Source: an uncultured Verrucomicrobiota bacterium | Lineage (GTDB): Bacteria; Verrucomicrobiota; Kiritimatiellia; RFP12; UBA1067 | Reading direction: 5' to 3' | DNA: 64,000 nucleotides | NCBI GenBank assembly: GCA_946055075.1 | Contig: CAMGEN010000002.1 | Location: 1,174-65,173 of the forward strand | Shown here: piece by piece, positions 18,032 to 64,000 of the stretch | How the letters are laid out: each line of letters starts with the position of its first letter | How positions within the stretch are numbered: the stretch's first letter is position 1 | Made by a program: the position numbers and the translations under genes | The notes under the pieces: generated by a model | What the model was told of the DNA's origin: nothing | The model's input: the letters and a program-made list of their open reading frames with translations, nothing else | Database searches by the model: none

Positions 18032-19303
18032 TCACAGACCGATTCGCCTGACCGCCGCCAGCAGCCTGTCCTTCGCATCCGACGCCGCCGGCCACCCGTC
18101 GTAGCCGTTGTCGTCACCGCCCTTCTCGTAGACCACCCTCCCGCCGATGACCGTCTTCACGACGTCACTTGCGTGCATGGAATTGACTACGAGACTGGGG
18201 ATATCGAGCATGGGCGTTAGGTGGATGCGGTCGAGATCGACGACGCAGAAGTCCGCATGCTTGCCCACGGCGATCTCGCCCGTGTCTTCCATTCCCAGCG
18301 CCTTGGCTCCGTTCCTGGTAGCCATGTCGATCACATCCCACGCCGGCAGCACCGTCGGATCTTTCGCCAGTCCCTTGTGGATCAACGAGGCGAGATGCAT
18401 CTCCTCGAACATGTCGAGATTGTCATTCGACGCGCAGCCGTCCGTGCCGAGCGCCACGTTGACGCCGAGCTCCATCGCCCGAACGACCCGCGCGAAACCG
18501 CTGCCGAGCTTCATGTTGCTCGTCGGATTGTGAACGAGCGAAACGCCCTTCTCCGCCATGATCCGGAAATCGTCGTCCGTACACCACACGCAATGCGCGG
18601 CGTAGCCGCCGTGATCAAGGAGGCCGGTCGAGGCGAGATATGCGATCGGAGTCTTCCCGTGTCTTTCGATGCACTCGCAGTGCTCCTTCTCCGTTTCCGA
18701 GACATGCACGTGCAGGGGACGCTTCAGCTCCCTGTTGGCTTCGGCCAGTCCGCGGCAGAACGCCTCGTCCGTCAGATACTCGGAGTGAATGCAGATGTCT
18801 TCGTGCACATCCCCCTTGACCTCGCGGTCAATCCATTCGTTCCAGCTCCGGCAGGAGCCGATGCAGTCCTCCAGTCGTCCCGGAACGAAGTTAAGTCCGA
18901 CGCGGCAGATGCGGCCTTTCATCCCCGCCTCCAGCAACGCCACGCCCGTCTCTCCGGGGAAGTCATACATGTCAGCGACGCAGGTCGTGCCGCCAGCGAG
19001 CATCTCCATGATACCCCAGACGGCACCAGCGCGGACGTCTTCCGGTGTCATCTTCGCCTCGACCGGGAAGATCGCCTCCTCCAGCCAGCGCTGCAAGGGC
19101 AGTCCGCCGCCCAGTCCCCGCACCAGCGTCATCGCCGTGTGACCGTGACAGTTGATCAGTCCGGGAAGGACGAGCAGGTTGGAGGACGAAGTTGAAGGTT
19201 GAGGTTGAGAATGGATTGCGGTAATCCTTCCGCCTTCAAACTCAATGCTGCCGAAGCCAACCTTGTGACCCGGCAGCACCATGTGGACGTTCTCGAACTT
19301 CAT
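18032..19303 (-). CDS. Amidohydrolase-superfamily deaminase (MtaD/TrzA/SsnA-like)
   Basis: Metal ligands HGHTAM, HVHVSET, and GTDGCASNDNLDMF. Confidence 0.8.
   Translation of the reverse strand: MKFENVHMVLPGHKVGFGSIEFEGGRITAIHSQPQPSTSSSNLLVLPGLINCHGHTAMTLVRGLGGGLPLQRWLEEAIFPVEAKMTPEDVRAGAVWGIMEMLAGGTTCVADMYDFPGETGVALLEAGMKGRICRVGLNFVPGRLEDCIGSCRSWNEWIDREVKGDVHEDICIHSEYLTDEAFCRGLAEANRELKRPLHVHVSETEKEHCECIERHGKTPIAYLASTGLLDHGGYAAHCVWCTDDDFRIMAEKGVSLVHNPTSNMKLGSGFARVVRAMELGVNVALGTDGCASNDNLDMFEEMHLASLIHKGLAKDPTVLPAWDVIDMATRNGAKALGMEDTGEIAVGKHADFCVVDLDRIHLTPMLDIPSLVVNSMHASDVVKTVIGGRVVYEKGGDDNGYDGWPAASDAKDRLLAAVRRIGL
19175..19211 (+). repeat. TCRACC-family element, inverted orientation, in-frame in the amidohydrolase
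   Basis: Plus strand CAGGTTGGAGGACGAAGTTGAAGGTTGAGGTTGAGAA. It shares both termini (CAGGTTG...GAGGTYGAGAA) with the copies at 38610 and 63655. Here it is translated on the TCAACC strand as SQPQPSTSSSN. Confidence 0.8.
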
Positions 19304-37811: not shown

Positions 37812-39776
37812 CTAAGAAAAGCAAACCTCCGGAAACAGTTCGACGCCTTTGCGAAGAAGGACACGATTACGCATAATCTGCATAAGCGCAAGGAAATCGG
37901 AGGCTGTCGCGGAATCTGGCGGAGCAACGATCACGTTCGCGTGCTCCGACCAGACACTGGCACCGCCGACTCGGAGCCCCTTGCAACCGCAGTCTTCAAG
38001 CAACCGTCCCGCGAAATCTCCTTCCGGATTCCTGAAGACGCTACCCCGAGTGTGCGCTGGAAACTTCCGCCGCTTCGCGAGATAGTACTCCACGCTCTCG
38101 CATTCCCCATTCTTCACTCCCCGTTCCCCTTTAAAACGGACGTCCTGAATCTCGCCGGTCAGATCGGAATGACGATAGGAGAAGCCGCATTCGGAAGCCG
38201 GTATCCATTTGCCGTCCACCTTCACCGATTCGATCACTTCGCAAATTGAGTGTCCGTGCGCTCCGGCGTTCATCTTCACCCACCCGCCGAGCGTACCGGG
38301 AATACCGGACATCCACGGGAAAAGAGTGCTTAGCGCAGGGTGCTTTGTGCCGAGTTGAGACACAGGACCACTCGACTTCACATACTCGACGGATAGATTA
38401 AGGTCGGTCTTGACAGTATTGGTCCCTGCCCCAATCCAAATCTTACGAACCTTAACACCGCCATTCCTAATTCCTAATTCACACTTCCTAATTCTCTCCA
38501 AGATGTCCCCTGCGCCCTGAACCAACGTAACGTCGCCCGGACGCATCGAGTTCCGCGCATGCTCCCACGCATCCTCGCAGCTCTTCGCCAGAAACACTCT
38601 GGCATTCCCTTCTCGACCTCGACCTTCAACCTCAACCTGCCGCAAGGCGGCATACAGATCGCAGCTGTCCCCGCCTTCGATCGGCTTCTCGAACGCGGAA
38701 TAGATCGGACAGATCACCACCTCGTCCGCGAGCATCAGCGCCTCGGCAAACTCGCGTTTGAACGCCGCAGTTCGCGAATAACGGTGCGGCTGAAAAAGAA
38801 CACGGACAATCGGCCGAGAGGACGGGTAAGAGCCAAGAATCTGGGGCGCCCCAAGCAGAACGCGGGCGCGAGTGATGGCGTAACGGATTTCGGTCGGGTG
38901 ATGTCCATAATCCGCATAGACGCCTTCGGCGATTCTCTGGAAGCGACGGTCGGGGAGTTCGGCGGTCACCCGCGGCAGAACCGCCGCGATCGCCGCGGCG
39001 GAATGCCCGCGGGACAACGCGACCCGCACTGCCAGCATCGCATTAGGATCGTGTAGCAAGTGATCAGAGAACAGCAGACGGCTATCGGTTGAGGAACTGC
39101 AGATCCGCAACTGCTCGCTGCCAACCGCTCCCTGTTCGCCCCCCTCGATAACGCGATCGGCATTCGCACGAGCGGTCTCGTAGCATGCGAAGTAATCGGC
39201 AATGGTCTTAAAGTGGTCGGGATGGTCGTATTCACAGTTGGTGACGACAAGCGTCTTCGCATGATAAAGCGCCAGTGTACCGTCCGATTCATCCGCCTCA
39301 ACAACGAGAACGCCGGTATTGGAATCCGATGCCGAAGAATGAATGCCAGCCACCGGAAAGTTTCCGGTCTCGCCGCCGATCGCCCATTCGACCGATTCTC
39401 CGAGCTCGATCAACAGCTTCGCGATAAAGGTCGAAGTCGTGGTCTTACCGTGAGAACCGCAAACGGCGATCGAATCCGAGGACTCGTTAACGATCTCCGC
39501 CAGCACCTCACCGCGGCATCTGCGCCGCGATTCCGCAACGACGTATTCCGGATTGTCCTTGGCGACGGCAGGAGTAACAATCACGAGATCGTGCCCGTCG
39601 ACATGCGCGGCGTCATGCCCGATTGCCACGGGAATCCCAAGTGACTCGAGCCACCGCGTACGCGGCGTTGCCTTCAGATCGCAACCATCGACCTGATGTC
39701 CCCTTGCCTTCAAGAGAACGGCGAGGCCGGCCATGCCAACCCCGCCAATACCTACGAAATGAATCCTCATCATCAC
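37812..39776 (-). CDS. MurC-MurB fusion (UDP-MurNAc:L-Ala ligase + UDP-GlcNAc-enolpyruvyl reductase)
   Basis: N-terminus IHFVGIGGVGMAGLA, GSHGKTTT (MurC). C-terminus SGIPGTLGGWVKMNAGAHG, GSVFRNP, GGASVWSEHANVIV (MurB). Confidence 0.88.
   Translation of the reverse strand: MMMRIHFVGIGGVGMAGLAVLLKARGHQVDGCDLKATPRTRWLESLGIPVAIGHDAAHVDGHDLVIVTPAVAKDNPEYVVAESRRRCRGEVLAEIVNESSDSIAVCGSHGKTTTSTFIAKLLIELGESVEWAIGGETGNFPVAGIHSSASDSNTGVLVVEADESDGTLALYHAKTLVVTNCEYDHPDHFKTIADYFACYETARANADRVIEGGEQGAVGSEQLRICSSSTDSRLLFSDHLLHDPNAMLAVRVALSRGHSAAAIAAVLPRVTAELPDRRFQRIAEGVYADYGHHPTEIRYAITRARVLLGAPQILGSYPSSRPIVRVLFQPHRYSRTAAFKREFAEALMLADEVVICPIYSAFEKPIEGGDSCDLYAALRQVEVEGRGREGNARVFLAKSCEDAWEHARNSMRPGDVTLVQGAGDILERIRKCELGIRNGGVKVRKIWIGAGTNTVKTDLNLSVEYVKSSGPVSQLGTKHPALSTLFPWMSGIPGTLGGWVKMNAGAHGHSICEVIESVKVDGKWIPASECGFSYRHSDLTGEIQDVRFKGERGVKNGECESVEYYLAKRRKFPAHTRGSVFRNPEGDFAGRLLEDCGCKGLRVGGASVWSEHANVIVAPPDSATASDFLALMQIMRNRVLLRKGVELFPEVCFS
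38102..38129 (-). repeat. ATTCNNN/GGGGAAY heptamer array in the MurB part
   Basis: Plus strand attcccc attcttc actcccc gttcccc, encoding KGERGVKNGE. Confidence 0.85.
38463..38497 (-). repeat. TAGGAAT-type heptamer array (x5) at the MurC/MurB domain junction
   Basis: Plus strand attccta attccta attcaca cttccta attctct, encoding RKCELGIRNGG. Confidence 0.88.
38610..38639 (-). repeat. TCRACC-family 30-mer in-frame in the MurC part
   Basis: TTCTCGACCTCGACCTTCAACCTCAACCTG matches 63655-63684 at 28/30 positions. Encodes QVEVEGRGRE. Confidence 0.92.
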
Positions 39777-48855: not shown

Positions 48856-50981
48856 AGGATATTGCCCTTTCTATGAATTCGTTCAATACGTTTTTCCGCC
48901 TCTGCGGACGCTGGCACCGACGCAGTAACGACAAGACGCAGTACCGCAACCGCCTGCGCGTCGGAGCCACGGCTTTCGTATTCTTCAGCGAGTCGAAAAG
49001 CCGCGCGCGAAAAAGCCGCACGCGCATCATCGTCGTAGGGGATACCTTCAGTCCTCCCGTCACGATATGCCAAAACCACCCGCGAATAATACTCGTCGAT
49101 CGCCTGATCCATCCGCTTCAGACGTTCAAGCGTCTTGGCGAGCTTATAAGAGAGCCGGATCTTGACGGACGGCGAAAGCTTCTCGCCTGAACGGAGCGCC
49201 GTGTAGGCCTCCAAGGCCTGGCGGTAACGAACCGGATCATCCGCTCCCATCGCAAACAACGCATCCGCCCTCAGCAACTGCGCACGAAGGCGAAGCGTCG
49301 CGTCGGCCTCCGCCGCAATTGACACGCGTTCAGCGACGAGAATCGACTCATCGAACCGCGCAAGCTCAATCAGCGACTCGGCCTGCAACAGCATGCCCTC
49401 GACAGAGGAGCGAGTCCCGGGGCAAGTCGAATCAAGCCGCGTGGCGTTTTGCACCGTCTTTTGGAAATCGCCCGCCGCAAAGGCTGCCCGAGTCGCCCAC
49501 AGCAACGGTTCTGACGCAACGGACGGATCTTCAGCCCGGTCCGCACAAGTGCTGAAACCAGCCTCCGCTTCGCGATACCGTCCGCGGTTGTAAAGATACT
49601 TGGCAAGCCACATGGACGCATCAAAACGCACCCGCCGGTCCTCCGAACTAGAAGAAATCTCAACTGCCTTCTTCTCCGCCGCAGCATCCTGATTGAGCCC
49701 ATACAGACAGACCATGTCGTAGTACGCCATCCGCGGAGCCAAAGAAGAATCACGCTTCGCGACCTCCGCGAAGATCGTTCGCGCATCGTCGAAACGATAC
49801 GCAGCGAAAGCATCGTACCCCTTCTGTTCAAGCTCCCGCACCGACACCATTTCCTTGACCTTCCTCGCCGCCACCGTATCCGAGTAACTTGCAAGAGCCT
49901 CGCGATAACGGGACATTGACTCCTCACGCTTGCCGAGATTGGCGAGGACGTCTCCCGACTTCACCATCGCAAGCGCCTTCGTCTCGTCATCAGCCGACAT
50001 CGCAAGCGCAATCGAGAACTCGGTTAGCGCCTCTTCATTACGCCCAGTCTCGGCCAGCGCCCAACCGATACCAAGCCGCACGGACGCCTCTTTCGCCGTC
50101 TCCGGCCAGGTCTCCATCGCCTCGCGATAAGTCTGAATGCAGACGGCGTAATCGCCACGTGAGAGCTCCACATCGGCCAACGACAGAAACGCCTCCTTCG
50201 CCCCGCGGAAATCCGGAGAATCCTTAGCGATACGGCGGATAATCGACGCGCCCTCCGAAAAGCTGCCCTTCTCGCGAACAAGCAGCATGCCGAGTTGAAT
50301 ACCGGCGAAACGAACGACATCGGGATCAGTGGACTCCGAAACCACTCGGCGAAGCGCTGCAACGTCAGCAAGGTTAGCAGCCGCAATCGACACCGCCGAT
50401 TCAGGAGCATTCGTCATCGCAACCACTTCCCGCCAGAGCGCCTCCGCCTCGGCGTCTTCCCCGCGAGATTTGTGAATCGCTGCGGACACCATCTTCGAAT
50501 CCGCACCACCGCCACTGGCTTCAAGCTTCGATAGCGCCGCATCGACATAACCCTCGCGCCGAAGCACCGCCGCATGCAACAATGAGGCGTCCGCAGCAAT
50601 GACACCGCGGGAGAAGTCGGTAGATTCGAGCAGCCGTCGCGCGGCATCGTGTTCACCGGTACGATAAAGCGCCGCCGCCTTATAGTATGCGAATTCCGGG
50701 ACTTCAGACTTGCCGTACGCCTCAACCGTGGACAGCACATCCGACCACTTGTGCTCGCGCGCGAAGCTCTCGAGCACCACGATCTTTGCAAGGTCACCGT
50801 CTGCTTTACGGGCATGTGTGCGCGCGACCTCCCAGAGGCCATCCCGCAGCGCCTGCCGCGCAACGTCGATTTCGCCAGCATAAGCAGCCGAAATCGAATG
50901 AAGCATGAAAAACGAAAGATGAAGAACGAAAAGAAGGCAGTGCCTTCCGCAATTCCTCATTCTCAATTCTTCAATCTTCAT
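48852..50981 (-). CDS. Large secreted TPR-repeat protein
   Basis: Signal-like CLLFVLHLSFFMLHSISAAYA, followed by many TPR-like helices. TAATG overlap with era. Confidence 0.75.
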   Translation of the reverse strand: MKIEELRMRNCGRHCLLFVLHLSFFMLHSISAAYAGEIDVARQALRDGLWEVARTHARKADGDLAKIVVLESFAREHKWSDVLSTVEAYGKSEVPEFAYYKAAALYRTGEHDAARRLLESTDFSRGVIAADASLLHAAVLRREGYVDAALSKLEASGGGADSKMVSAAIHKSRGEDAEAEALWREVVAMTNAPESAVSIAAANLADVAALRRVVSESTDPDVVRFAGIQLGMLLVREKGSFSEGASIIRRIAKDSPDFRGAKEAFLSLADVELSRGDYAVCIQTYREAMETWPETAKEASVRLGIGWALAETGRNEEALTEFSIALAMSADDETKALAMVKSGDVLANLGKREESMSRYREALASYSDTVAARKVKEMVSVRELEQKGYDAFAAYRFDDARTIFAEVAKRDSSLAPRMAYYDMVCLYGLNQDAAAEKKAVEISSSSEDRRVRFDASMWLAKYLYNRGRYREAEAGFSTCADRAEDPSVASEPLLWATRAAFAAGDFQKTVQNATRLDSTCPGTRSSVEGMLLQAESLIELARFDESILVAERVSIAAEADATLRLRAQLLRADALFAMGADDPVRYRQALEAYTALRSGEKLSPSVKIRLSYKLAKTLERLKRMDQAIDEYYSRVVLAYRDGRTEGIPYDDDARAAFSRAAFRLAEEYESRGSDAQAVAVLRLVVTASVPASAEAEKRIERIHRKGNIL

Positions 50982-50986
50982 TACAC
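50952..50986 (-). repeat. ATTCNNN heptamer array (x5) across the era/TPR-gene junction
   Basis: Plus strand attcctc attctca attcttc aatcttc attacac. Both candidate ATGs (50981, 50960) and the era TAA fall at unit boundaries. Confidence 0.8.
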
Positions 50987-51934
50987 AAGCTCTCCCAAAT
51001 ACCCCATCTCAGCGAGCAGTCGCTCGTTCTTCATCCAGTTGCGTTCCACCCGAACATTGATCTCGAGCTCGACCTTGAGCCCGAAGATCTCCTTGAGCTC
51101 CTTCTCCGCCGCCTTGCGCACCCCCTTCACGGTCGATGCTCCGCGGCCGATCGCCATCGGCTTCTGCGACTCGCGGTTGACCAGCGCATCGACCTGCACC
51201 ACCCACTTGTCCGTCTTCTCTTCGATACGCTTGACCAGAATCCCGAGTTCATGCGGCAACTCCTGGAAAAGCTTGCCGATGTACTTCTCGCGGATCACGT
51301 CCGCGATCGTGAGCTTGCGCGGATAATCGGTGACGATATCGTCATCGAACAGTGCCTCCCCATCTTCAGCGAAATTAAAAAGCGCATCCATCACCGCATT
51401 AGCCCCACCTTCGGTCGTGGAGATGGACTTAATCCACACGGGAGACAAGTCGAAGTCCAGAGTCGAAGTCGAAGCAATTCCCTGTTCGACCTCGGCTTTC
51501 GACTTCGACTCCGCCTGGGCCTCGACCCAAGCGGACTTGTATTCGTCTTCGAAAAACGGACTCTTATCCGCCTTGTTAAGCACAAATACGACCTTCTCCG
51601 GGTGCTCCTTGGAAACGCGCTGCATCCATCCGATGTCCTCAAGCTGCGGCGGCTGCGAAGCGTCGAAGACCACGCAAGTGACGTCCGTTCCCGCAGCACT
51701 GCGACGCGCCATGCGGTTAAGGAGACGACCGAGAGTGCCTACGGCCTTGTGAAGGCCGGGAGTATCCAGCAACACGAGCTGCCCCCGCGGATCGGACACG
51801 ATCCCGCGGATGGTGTTACGGGTAGTCTGTTCGACCGGAGACACGATCGAAACCTTCTCTCCCACAAGCGCATTCACGAGCGTCGATTTCCCGGCGTTCG
51901 TCCTGCCTACAACTCCGACAACGGCAACCTTCAT
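50981..51934 (-). CDS. era: GTPase Era
   Basis: GRTNAGKSTL, DTPG, NKAD, C-terminal KH domain (VIREKYIGKLFQELPHEL). Confidence 0.93.
   Translation of the reverse strand: MKVAVVGVVGRTNAGKSTLVNALVGEKVSIVSPVEQTTRNTIRGIVSDPRGQLVLLDTPGLHKAVGTLGRLLNRMARRSAAGTDVTCVVFDASQPPQLEDIGWMQRVSKEHPEKVVFVLNKADKSPFFEDEYKSAWVEAQAESKSKAEVEQGIASTSTLDFDLSPVWIKSISTTEGGANAVMDALFNFAEDGEALFDDDIVTDYPRKLTIADVIREKYIGKLFQELPHELGILVKRIEEKTDKWVVQVDALVNRESQKPMAIGRGASTVKGVRKAAEKELKEIFGLKVELEINVRVERNWMKNERLLAEMGYLGELV
51460..51511. repeat. Perfect 14-bp inverted repeat with a 24-nt spacer inside era
   Basis: GAGTCGAAGTCGAA (51460-51473) pairs with TTCGACTTCGACTC (51498-51511). The spacer gcAATTCCCTGTTCGACCTCGGct resembles the start of the 38610 element. 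Encodes part of AESKSKAEVEQGIASTSTLDFDLS. Confidence 0.92.
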
Positions 51935-62379: not shown

Positions 62380-64000
62380 TTAGAATTCAAGGGCCTCGTA
62401 AACCATGGCGATGAATTCGCCGTAGTTCATGCGCTTCTGCTCCATGGTATCACGGTCACGGACAGTGAACGTGCCATCCTGGACCGACTGGGCATCGACG
62501 GTGATGCACCAGGGCGTGCCAGCCTCGTCCTGACGGCGATAGCGGCGGCCGATGGCACCGGAGACATCCCACTGACAGTTAAACTTCTTCTGGAGCTTCG
62601 TGAAGAGGTCGCGCGCGAACTTCATCTGCGCCTCGTCCTTCTTGATGAGCGGGAAGACCGCCACCTTGACCGGGGCGACCTTCGGGGAGAAATGCAGCAC
62701 CGTACGGACATCCTCCTTGCCCTTCTCGTCCGTAAGCTTCTGCTCCTCATACGCCTCGCAGAGAAGCGCGAGCATCAGACGGTCGACGCCGGCAGACGGC
62801 TCGATGACGTGCGGGATGTACTTGCCGTCGAAAAGGTTGAGGCAGAACTTCTCGGCTGCGGCCGCAATCTCCGCCTTCTGCTCGTCGGTGAACGGAACGG
62901 ACTTCCCGGCCTTCGCATCCGCAGCCTTCTGCTTGCGGTCGAGCCACTCGGCCTGGGTCTTCGCGATAAACGCCTTACGCGCCGCCTCGTCGAGCTTCTT
63001 CGCCGCCTGCTTCAGCGGATCGTCGAAGAACATCTGCGACTCGCCGGACCACTTCTGATGCTGCGTGAGGTCGAAGTCGCTGCGCGCGGCGATACCCTCG
63101 AGCTCCTGCACGCCGAACGGGAACGAGTATTCGATATCAACCGTCGCGCGGGCGTAGTGGGCGAGCTCGTCCGGCTTCTGCCAGTACTCGACGAAATGCT
63201 CGGTCGGCAGACCCACCGCATTGAGGAAACGCTTACGCTGCTCGACCCAGTACTTGTGCCAGACCTCCCAACCCCAGTCGTCCTGCACGGGACCGTTGAT
63301 GTCGGGATTGTCGGCGAGCGTCACCACATGACCGTGGAGGATCTCCACCGCCTCATCAGGACGGATGAAGAACTCGAGCTCCATCTGCTCGAACTCGCGG
63401 CTGCGGAACGTGTAGTTGCGCGGCGTGACCTCGTTGCGGAAGCTCTTGCCCATCTGCGCGATGCCGTAGGGGACCGCCATACGGGAGGTCGCCGTAACGT
63501 TGTTGAACTGCGCGAAGATCGCCTGGGCGGTCTCGGGCCTGAGATACGCGACGTTCGAAGGATCCTCGATCGGACCAACGATCGTCTTGAACATGAGGTT
63601 GAACGGCTTCGGCTCGGTGAGCTCGCCGCCGCAGTACGGACAAAATTCACCAATTTCTCGACCTCGACCTCCAACCTCTACCTGTGCCTTCGGCACCGGC
63701 TTCTTCTTCTGATCGGCGTAGATATCCTTCACCTGGTCGGCGCGCATCAGCTTCTTGCAGTCCTTGCACATCGTCATCGGATCGGCGAAGGTGTCGAGAT
63801 GGCCGGACGCCTTCCAGATCTTCGGATTCATGATGATCGTCGCATCGAGACCCGCGACATCCTCGCGTCCGCGGACCGTAGCCTGCCACCAGGCCTGCTT
63901 CACATTCGCCTTCAGCTCGCAACCAAGCGGACCGTAATCCCAGAAGCCGGGCATGCCGCCGTAGATCTCGGACGAGTGATAAATGAATCCGCGACGCTTG
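62380..64000 (-). CDS. glyQS: Glycine-tRNA ligase (dimeric class II type); 5' end beyond the window
   Basis: The frame is open upstream of the listed Met (…RRGFIYHSSEIYGGMPGFWDYGPLG). Motif 2/3 pattern and a C-terminal anticodon-binding domain. Confidence 0.92.
   Translation of the reverse strand, partial: KRRGFIYHSSEIYGGMPGFWDYGPLGCELKANVKQAWWQATVRGREDVAGLDATIIMNPKIWKASGHLDTFADPMTMCKDCKKLMRADQVKDIYADQKKKPVPKAQVEVGGRGREIGEFCPYCGGELTEPKPFNLMFKTIVGPIEDPSNVAYLRPETAQAIFAQFNNVTATSRMAVPYGIAQMGKSFRNEVTPRNYTFRSREFEQMELEFFIRPDEAVEILHGHVVTLADNPDINGPVQDDWGWEVWHKYWVEQRKRFLNAVGLPTEHFVEYWQKPDELAHYARATVDIEYSFPFGVQELEGIAARSDFDLTQHQKWSGESQMFFDDPLKQAAKKLDEAARKAFIAKTQAEWLDRKQKAADAKAGKSVPFTDEQKAEIAAAAEKFCLNLFDGKYIPHVIEPSAGVDRLMLALLCEAYEEQKLTDEKGKEDVRTVLHFSPKVAPVKVAVFPLIKKDEAQMKFARDLFTKLQKKFNCQWDVSGAIGRRYRRQDEAGTPWCITVDAQSVQDGTFTVRDRDTMEQKRMNYGEFIAMVYEALEF
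63655..63684 (-). repeat. TCRACC-family 30-mer in-frame in glyQS
   Basis: TTCTCGACCTCGACCTCCAACCTCTACCTG, encoding QVEVGGRGRE. Same frame and orientation as the murC-murB copy. Confidence 0.92.

Follow-up and report, generated by a model that had tools for sequence, protein, structure and literature searches.

The window analysed here, a 64,000-nt stretch of contig CAMGEN010000002.1 from an uncultured Kiritimatiellia bacterium of gut or rumen, carries on its minus strand the era gene, whose coding sequence contains a 65-nt hairpin element that is the subject of this report. The gene product matches Pfam MMR_HSR1 (the GTPase domain, 2.8e-21) and KH_2 (the KH domain, 6.7e-10), and the GRTNAGKS, DTPG and NKAD motifs are visible in its translation; it has the make-up expected of Era, namely a Ras-like GTPase with motifs G1-G5 followed by a C-terminal KH domain, and the PDB Era chains 9jkp, 1wf3, 3iev and 1ega match it at 1e-31 to 1e-41. 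The host genome is a metagenome-assembled genome (MAG) of 107 contigs and 2.0 Mb with 89.9% completeness (C-numbers below denote its contigs), in which era is single-copy (one strong match, the sole Era orthologue) and presumably essential. The element lies downstream of NKAD (the G4 motif) and upstream of the stretch that forms beta6 and G5, encodes a peptide that includes QAESKSKAEVEQGIASTSTLDFDLS, and on balance makes Era about 20 residues longer than in relatives that lack it. An earlier sequence-only reading had proposed that it had been kept in frame, which is borne out by the intact open reading frame of 317 amino acids; moreover, the element is free of stop codons in all six reading frames.

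That reading had also described a perfect 14-nt inverted repeat around a 24-nt spacer. The two arms, GAGTCGAAGTCGAA and TTCGACTTCGACTC, are indeed exact reverse complements with a spacer of this length, and the extra copy of GTCGAAGTC that had been noted beside them is present at 51449-51457. The hairpin itself is real but larger than first described, since the repeat finder returned arms of 26 nt each (51448-51473 and 51485-51510) that are 85% complementary and enclose an 11-nt loop; the perfect 14-nt repeat is the best-matching register of this longer hairpin. The folding check suggested at the time agrees with it: the era-sense RNA folds at -39.6 kcal/mol, compared with -26.1 +/- 3.6 for shuffled sequences (z = -3.7), and only 1 of 200 shuffles folds as well. 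At the scale of the whole genome, perfect inverted repeats of at least 14 nt with a loop of at most 40 nt were found at 27 loci, as opposed to 0 in five triplet-shuffled genomes, and the inverted repeat in era is therefore not a product of chance. Comparison with Rfam gave noise only (19 and 17 bits, where the gathering scores are 100 and 80) and no matching RNA family. In the era sense the insert reads GAG TCGAAG TCGAAA GCCGAG GTCGAA - CAGGGAATTGC - TTCGAC TTCGAC TCTGGAC TTCGAC. The loop GCAATTCCCTG, compared with the family cores below, is gcAATTCCctg. Because the element is palindromic and its core degenerate, its orientation relative to era is not fixable. The features of the locus and their relatives in the window are collected in Table 1.

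Table 1. Positions of the era element, its parts and related features within the window.
Feature	Position	Strand	Source or remark
era gene, 317 aa	50981-51934	minus	open reading frame list; hosts the hairpin insert
Whole hairpin element, 65 nt	51447-51511		encodes E142-L163 of Era
Perfect 14-nt inverted repeat, left arm GAGTCGAAGTCGAA	51460-51473	+	repeat finder
Perfect 14-nt inverted repeat, right arm TTCGACTTCGACTC	51498-51511	+	repeat finder
Arm 1, 25-nt module AGTCGA AGTCCAG AGTCGA AGTCGA (U6-v7-U6-U6)	51448-51472	+	back-reference search, C2:52621
Arm 2, 25-nt module TTCGAC CTCGGCT TTCGAC TTCGAC	51485-51509	+	back-reference search, C2:52658
Loop/core GCAATTCCCTG (era sense CAGGGAATTGC)	51474-51484	+	compared with family cores
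Single-arm relative, murC-murB 'TCGACC element', ATTCCCTTC TCGACC TCGACC TTCAACC TCAACC	38610-38639	+	
Single-arm relative in glyQS	63655-63684	+	18/24 positions identical to era arm 2
Single-arm relative in an amidohydrolase gene	19175-19211	minus	opposite orientation; junction CCGCAATCCATTC-TCAACC
Second family member, spanning the boundary between era and the TPR gene	50908-50985 (C2:52078-52153)		core GGAATTGC, also in the era insert

Comparison with Era proteins from other sources confirmed that the segment is an insertion. The PDB Era chains align to residues 1 to about 140 and about 170 to 313 only, with nothing opposite the insert, while ten other families of the same order share a fixed short loop of the LQQEKSRTR type, and L003, a congener whose Era is 84% identical, has merely IATPT at this place (L-numbers denote loci in relatives, P-numbers Era proteins in the alignment); the segment is therefore lineage-specific. 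In an AlphaFold model with a mean predicted local distance difference test (pLDDT) score of 73, the insert falls between the helix at 129-150 and the strand at 166-170, that is, in the alpha4-beta6 loop, which in Ras-like folds lies on the face opposite the nucleotide site. The pLDDT drops below 50 at residues 150-160 between confidently modelled flanks, which suggests that these residues may be disordered. Among 37 congeneric species the loop has a baseline of 7-12 residues, and at least 12 of the 37 carry arrays or hairpins in it, built from at least eight unit types and reaching 53 residues. Inverted inserts occupy the loop in L084 (z = -5.4), L062, L061, L060 and L048, and direct arrays in L050/L056 (two AGTTGG modules), L063/L066 and L059; L003, L012 and about 10 other species have the short loop alone. 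Separately, the protein alignment shows that close Era relatives have low-complexity, array-like inserts at two other loops (P0025/P0027/P0029, P0026 and P0030/P0032/P0033), one after alpha3, following MQRIAREK (YSNNQNNRIGAED or GEGEGKGKGVGGGGQR), and the other in the KH domain (EKRLEIRDERLDAEVK). These extra inserts fit insertion or expansion at many places with survival in permissive loops alone, and they also fit ongoing remodelling of sites that had already been colonised.

Each arm of the era hairpin is a 25-nt module with the layout U6-v7-U6-U6, namely a hexamer, any seven nucleotides and the same hexamer twice. An exact back-reference search of the host genome for this layout gave 55 matches, and 44 for its complement (both era arms included), with 0-5 matches when the spacer was set to 4, 5, 6, 8, 9 or 10 nt instead of 7; removal of phase duplicates left about 80 loci. 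Tandem Repeats Finder (score of at least 40) reported 141 arrays of period 7, 28 of period 6, 65 of period 13 and 80 of period 14, compared with 0, 0, 5 and 3, respectively, in a triplet-shuffled genome. Roughly three quarters of the arrays (about 200) fall within open frames that are 200 codons or longer, a smaller share than the 91% obtained for random segments. The commonest unit type is AGTTGG. Its module occurs 23 times in the host genome; a survey detected it in 13 of 41 congeneric genomes but in none of 120 genomes from elsewhere in the class. The heptamer of the module is different at nearly every locus. Within the AGTTGG module we also observed that the flanking hexamer blocks are constant and that the five middle bases of the second unit vary by locus in a barcode-like manner.

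Beyond this shared layout, the era loop was compared with 26 paired-array loops, the junctions of cassettes that carry S23p genes, and the homologous era insert of L048. In gene-less array pairs no more than 80 nt apart, the loop typically opens with GGAGG or GGAAT and closes with ATTCC(g/a)c immediately ahead of the pyrimidine array; against this family pattern of GGAAT...ATTCCGC, the era core appears as a degenerate, collapsed version (GGAATTGC / GCAATTCC). The homologous era inserts of L048 and L040 have the complete core motif, as do other loci, and the L048 insert (Era identity 76%) combines the full core AGGAATgttgaaAATTCCGCT with a fold z-score of -5.8. The sequence-only reading had likened the spacer to the 5' end of the 'TCGACC element', and this likeness is upheld: the plus strand from ATTCCCT onwards matches the murC-murB copy at 26 of 33 positions in an ungapped comparison, and the segment is indeed related to the dispersed TCGACC arrays.

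A further link leads from these modules to S23p. The host genome encodes seven PF05635 (S23p) genes, five of which lie between inverted arrays of 6-7-nt units, with a purine-rich array and its pyrimidine-rich counterpart on the two sides. The copy on C19 (C19:30737-31045) is flanked by exactly one AGTTGG module per side, its right junction being ATTCCGCT-CTCCAAC. In full cassettes GGAGG is the Shine-Dalgarno sequence of S23p, and the pairs that lack a gene accordingly look like derivatives left by an internal deletion. The era copy is itself without a gene. Thus the proposal of a mini-element holds in the sense that the segment resembles a gene-less miniature of a larger cassette, in which S23p genes are bracketed by the same 25-nt modules. 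In Coxiella, the S23p-encoding intervening sequence (IVS) has a 28-bp terminal stem, differs from strain to strain in its number of tandem heptamers, and is cut out by RNase III (PMC4990558); by analogy with IVS stems, the 26-bp stem in the era mRNA may be regarded as a candidate RNase III substrate. As an observation in its own right, an AATAGGG-type heptamer hairpin and an S23p gene directly follow a tRNA/tmRNA-like 3' end (GGTTCGACTCCCCTCACCTCCA) at C6:12871-12980, which suggests a cassette beside an RNA gene.

Strain-level comparison revealed how quickly the insert changes. A protein search returned Era alleles of varied lengths that are 80-99% identical, and the DNA was compared for ten of them (percentages below are identities of era DNA with the window, the insert excluded). 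L041 (97%) lacks one TTCGAC unit and L042 (90%) the GCCGAG unit, while in L038 (91%) the whole centre of the hairpin is absent (ESK/STPEFD). L040 (90%) keeps the left arm and the CGGAATTCCG core, and its right half is a CTCCAAC module that matches the right flank of the C19 S23p cassette at 32 of 35 positions. A TACACC-type right half is common to L039 (91%) and L044 (82%), the two agreeing at 28 of 31 positions, and L045 (78%) keeps 26 of the 27 nt of the left arm. An entirely different, unrelated array insert occupies the site in L043 (95%), and even the 'empty' L003 allele keeps CGCTACACCTACACCT, a remnant of another array. The frame of the GAATT core also differs between strains (GGA ATT, AAT TGT and CGG AAT TCC), which, together with the absence of stop codons in all six frames, indicates that the DNA, and not the peptide, is what has been conserved and exchanged. 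The era locus thereby offers a population-level view of unit slippage, centre deletion and arm swapping at 90-97% flank identity. A GTCGGA/TCCGAC covariation in L048 was apparent only, and vanished when the pairing registers were compared.

We consider it probable that the 65-nt segment represents a miniature, lacking the gene, of a repeat-module cassette family with many members in this Kiritimatiellia genus, and that Era tolerates it within a permissive loop. The full form of the family would consist of a purine-rich and a pyrimidine-rich module that bracket a small S23p gene (PF05635, a four-helix bundle), as in the IVS of 23S rRNA, and the miniature form of two modules joined by the short core GGAAT...ATTCCGC. 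One such miniature may have entered the alpha4-beta6 surface loop in an ancestor of the species cluster; the insertion event, the enzyme behind it and any part played by S23p are inferred. With era essential, the survivors would have been limited to in-frame, stop-free and structurally harmless variants, which would also explain the persistence of the insert, and the encoded peptide would be a by-product of selfish or unstable DNA. Later changes are directly visible in their outcome, and their routes can be proposed: whole 6-nt units have been gained and lost, probably via slippage; the centre of the hairpin has been deleted, probably via TCGA microhomology; and an arm has been replaced by a module built from different units, probably via recombination at the shared core. 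The insertion in the protein thus appears to be dictated by the dynamics of a DNA repeat and not by protein function.

Several observations weigh against this interpretation. No second copy of the arm, the element or the whole 100-nt region occurs in the 2.0-Mb host genome, and the other GTCGAAGTCGA sites are mostly ordinary coding sequence (20 observed versus about 4 expected). Family membership is assigned by architecture (U6-v7-U6-U6) and a short core and not by alignable sequence, and in era this core is degenerate, with GGAATTGC in place of GGAATTCCGC. Many module pairs elsewhere are non-complementary, so that the hairpin is not a requirement of the family; in addition, RNAalifold, applied to six homologous inserts, detected no compensatory change on both sides of a pair, which leaves selection for the hairpin unsupported. 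No direct repeat that might represent a target-site duplication (TSD) is visible at the borders (CAGGCG / element / TCTCCC), a check made without a clean empty site, as the 'empty' alleles hold remnants of other arrays. Neither a transposase nor a recombinase is associated with the element, and we know of no mobility function for S23p. A mobiliser of the IS200 type or a RAYT (REP-associated tyrosine transposase, where REP stands for repetitive extragenic palindrome) was considered and set aside, as the sole Y1_Tnp match in the host genome is partial and unlinked.

These points bear on the original description of the segment as a miniature inverted-repeat transposable element (MITE)-like insertion, which survives as a resemblance and fails as a classification. 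The segment is small and has terminal inverted repeats (65 nt, arms of 26 nt and a perfect stretch of 14 nt), and it looks like a miniature; MITE status is contradicted by the absence of copies and of a transposase, and no TSD is visible. Searches of the host genome with exact matching, with 1-3 mismatches and with blastn-short found no other copy of the inverted repeat, and a classical multi-copy MITE is thereby dismissed. As to a transposase-encoding parent, those relatives that have matching module ends and do carry a gene encode S23p (PF05635) instead. The variable heptamers were also tried as target duplications and rejected, since paired heptamers are neither identical nor complementary. 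In general terms, MITEs and REP or REPIN elements (REPINs being paired REP sequences), which are mobilised by transposases or RAYTs, share with the era element a small, non-autonomous-looking, inverted-repeat build that suggests internal deletion from a gene-carrying parent; the era family differs from all of them in having no transposase or RAYT partner, no visible TSD and no near-identical copies, and in arms that are often non-complementary.

A close structural parallel is the S23p IVS of 23S rRNA in Coxiella burnetii, Leptospira and Salmonella (PMC4990558), which has similar terminal inverted repeats with a stem of about 26-28 bp. In both systems the arms contain tandem heptamers that vary in copy number from strain to strain, and full-length relatives in the host genome carry a PF05635 gene between the arms, as IVSs do; both are also selfish-looking elements that sit inside an essential gene without destroying it. 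The differences are that the era element resides in a protein-coding gene and is translated rather than excised from rRNA, that it is gene-less, 65 nt long and has strict U6-v7-U6-U6 arms, and that its family is dispersed over about 80 loci per 2 Mb, as compared with one site per rRNA operon. In its mode of residence the element resembles the Rickettsia palindromic elements (RPEs), which Ogata et al. reportedly described in 2000 as in-frame, translated palindromes in housekeeping protein genes. Like these, the era palindrome is in frame in a conserved protein gene, is translated and is absent from the PDB Era chains and from other families of the order, and it occupies a surface segment that the fold, judging from the pLDDT, seems to tolerate. 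Unlike RPEs, which are 100-150 bp long and form families recognisable by sequence, it is 65 nt long and has no sequence-similar copies, the family sharing an architecture and a short core with unit sequences that vary by locus; the phylum is also different (Kiritimatiellia versus Rickettsia), and the era family is linked to S23p cassettes. The segment therefore behaves like an in-frame palindromic element of the RPE kind that is built like the ends of an S23p/IVS cassette.

Dispersed tandem repeats with heptanucleotide units are also familiar from the short tandemly repeated repetitive (STRR) sequences of cyanobacteria. The TAACTGA arrays of Beggiatoaceae (PMC4679880) are, like the era family, short, abundant, lineage-restricted, of no known function, often located at gene borders and slippage-prone. 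Such heptamer arrays mostly comprise one heptamer per genome and are direct and intergenic. The era family, by contrast, is built from numerous unit types in a fixed module of four units, is paired in inverted orientation and often lies in frame within genes.

The slippage-prone nature of heptanucleotide repeats in many bacteria (PMC4679880) also counts in favour of a purely local origin, in which slippage built a hexamer run that was then subject to intrastrand template switching (quasipalindrome correction), with no tie to a dispersed element. Such an origin would account for the lack of any other copy of the sequence in the host genome, for the one-unit indels between strains, which are classic signs of slippage, and for congeners with direct and not inverted arrays in the Era loop (L063/L066, L050/L056 and L059). 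We nevertheless regard it as unlikely, given that both arms have the exact U6-v7-U6-U6 layout, which is shared by about 80 loci and hardly ever seen with a spacer of another length, and that the loop bears the family core, seen also at S23p cassette junctions. The alleles point the same way: the right half of L040 matches the multi-copy CTCCAAC module at 32 of 35 positions, for which an outside donor is needed, and the insert of L043 is wholly different despite flanks that are 95% identical.

It is also conceivable, if quite improbable in our judgement, that the insert is adaptive, either as a functional, lineage-specific surface loop of Era that contacts the ribosome or a partner, or as a hairpin in the mRNA by which RNase III cleavage or ribosome pausing would adjust era expression. 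The rnc-era operon of E. coli is itself controlled by RNase III cutting of a leader hairpin. RNase III is encoded in the host genome (C16:30408-31040; 165.8 bits), IVS stems of the same build are substrates of this enzyme (PMC4990558), and the hairpin is strong (-39.6 kcal/mol); a homologous hairpin persists at 76% Era identity (z = -5.8), and the left arm is conserved at 26 of 27 nt where the flanks are 78% identical. However, the peptide is not conserved, close strains delete, halve or replace the insert, and the same DNA core is translated in different frames. In addition, L003, L012 and about 10 other species manage with the short loop alone, the pLDDT below 50 at residues 150-160 suggests disorder, and compensatory pair changes were not found among the six inserts. 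To an artefact of assembly or binning, that is, a chimeric or mis-assembled repeat, we assign practically no weight: a MAG of 107 contigs and 89.9% completeness does invite the suspicion, as short repeats may mislead assemblers, but the identical protein is recorded on 10 contigs, independent ENA and Logan assemblies contain alleles of 97-99% identity in which this insert is likewise present, and the reading frame is intact.

A bolder reading may be offered, tentatively and as something we think rather doubtful. The modules would then mark the termini of a cassette system not described before, one that needs no transposase to copy or recombine, is restricted to this gut genus, carries S23p as its cargo, swaps modules as units at the conserved GGAAT/ATTCCGC core and repeatedly colonises and remodels surface loops of essential genes such as era. 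Within such a system the non-pairing heptamers might serve as a fixed internal loop of the stem, recognised by a protein or by RNase III. Were the modules mobile, the long-unexplained intervening sequences of 23S rRNA and the heptamer repeats of bacteria would be joined in one mechanism, which would also account for many of the puzzling low-complexity inserts in protein predictions from gut metagenomes. The locus shows in any case that rapid DNA change can be accommodated in a surface loop of a GTPase that is both essential and highly conserved, and it ties in-frame repeats to a stereotyped 25-nt module common to S23p cassettes. On the practical side, such inserts can mislead annotation, alignment and strain typing.

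The second element of the family in this region has its own effect on annotation. It is laid out as a purine-rich heptamer array, followed by GGAATTGCGGAAGGCACTGCCTTC and a pyrimidine-rich array, and this array hairpin takes up the space from the end of era to the beginning of a gene for a 709-residue tetratricopeptide repeat (TPR) protein. Gene callers translate it as the N-terminus of the TPR protein (MKIEELRMRNCGRHCLLFVLHLSFF...), and in related strains the junction holds GTAAGAG- or GAAAGAG-type arrays or none, with a corresponding shift of the called TPR start.

Several further repeats were encountered in the host genome. Non-complementary module pairs lie at C47:10144-10248, C8:12215-12305 and C11:13241-13312 (one such pair has AGTTGG/AGTTGA as its left arm and TACCAC as its right), and the era of strain L040 is a chimera of the same kind. 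The Y1_Tnp (IS200/IS605-type) match is located at C11:26875-27045 and covers profile positions 3-59 only; a perfect 30-nt palindrome, TGGGATTATCATAATTCGAGAAAATCGGTC, is found about 0.8 kb from it, at C11:27885-27945. A separate, sequence-conserved inverted-repeat family, GGAGCGGAAAGGATTCCGCATCCCC...GGGGATGCGGAATCCCTTCCGCTCC, is represented at C1:51098-51169, C12:28511-28587, C13:7760-7871 and C60:1042-1108, with arms of 27-36 nt and always within a long open frame (314-675 codons), and contains the ATTCCGCA motif, as do the array cores. Finally, a REP-like hairpin, ATGCTATAAGTCTCATTGG...CCAATGAGACTTATAGCAT, is present in five copies (C10:51895, C15:6195, C8:15282, C8:54447 and C81:3649), three of which lie outside long open frames.

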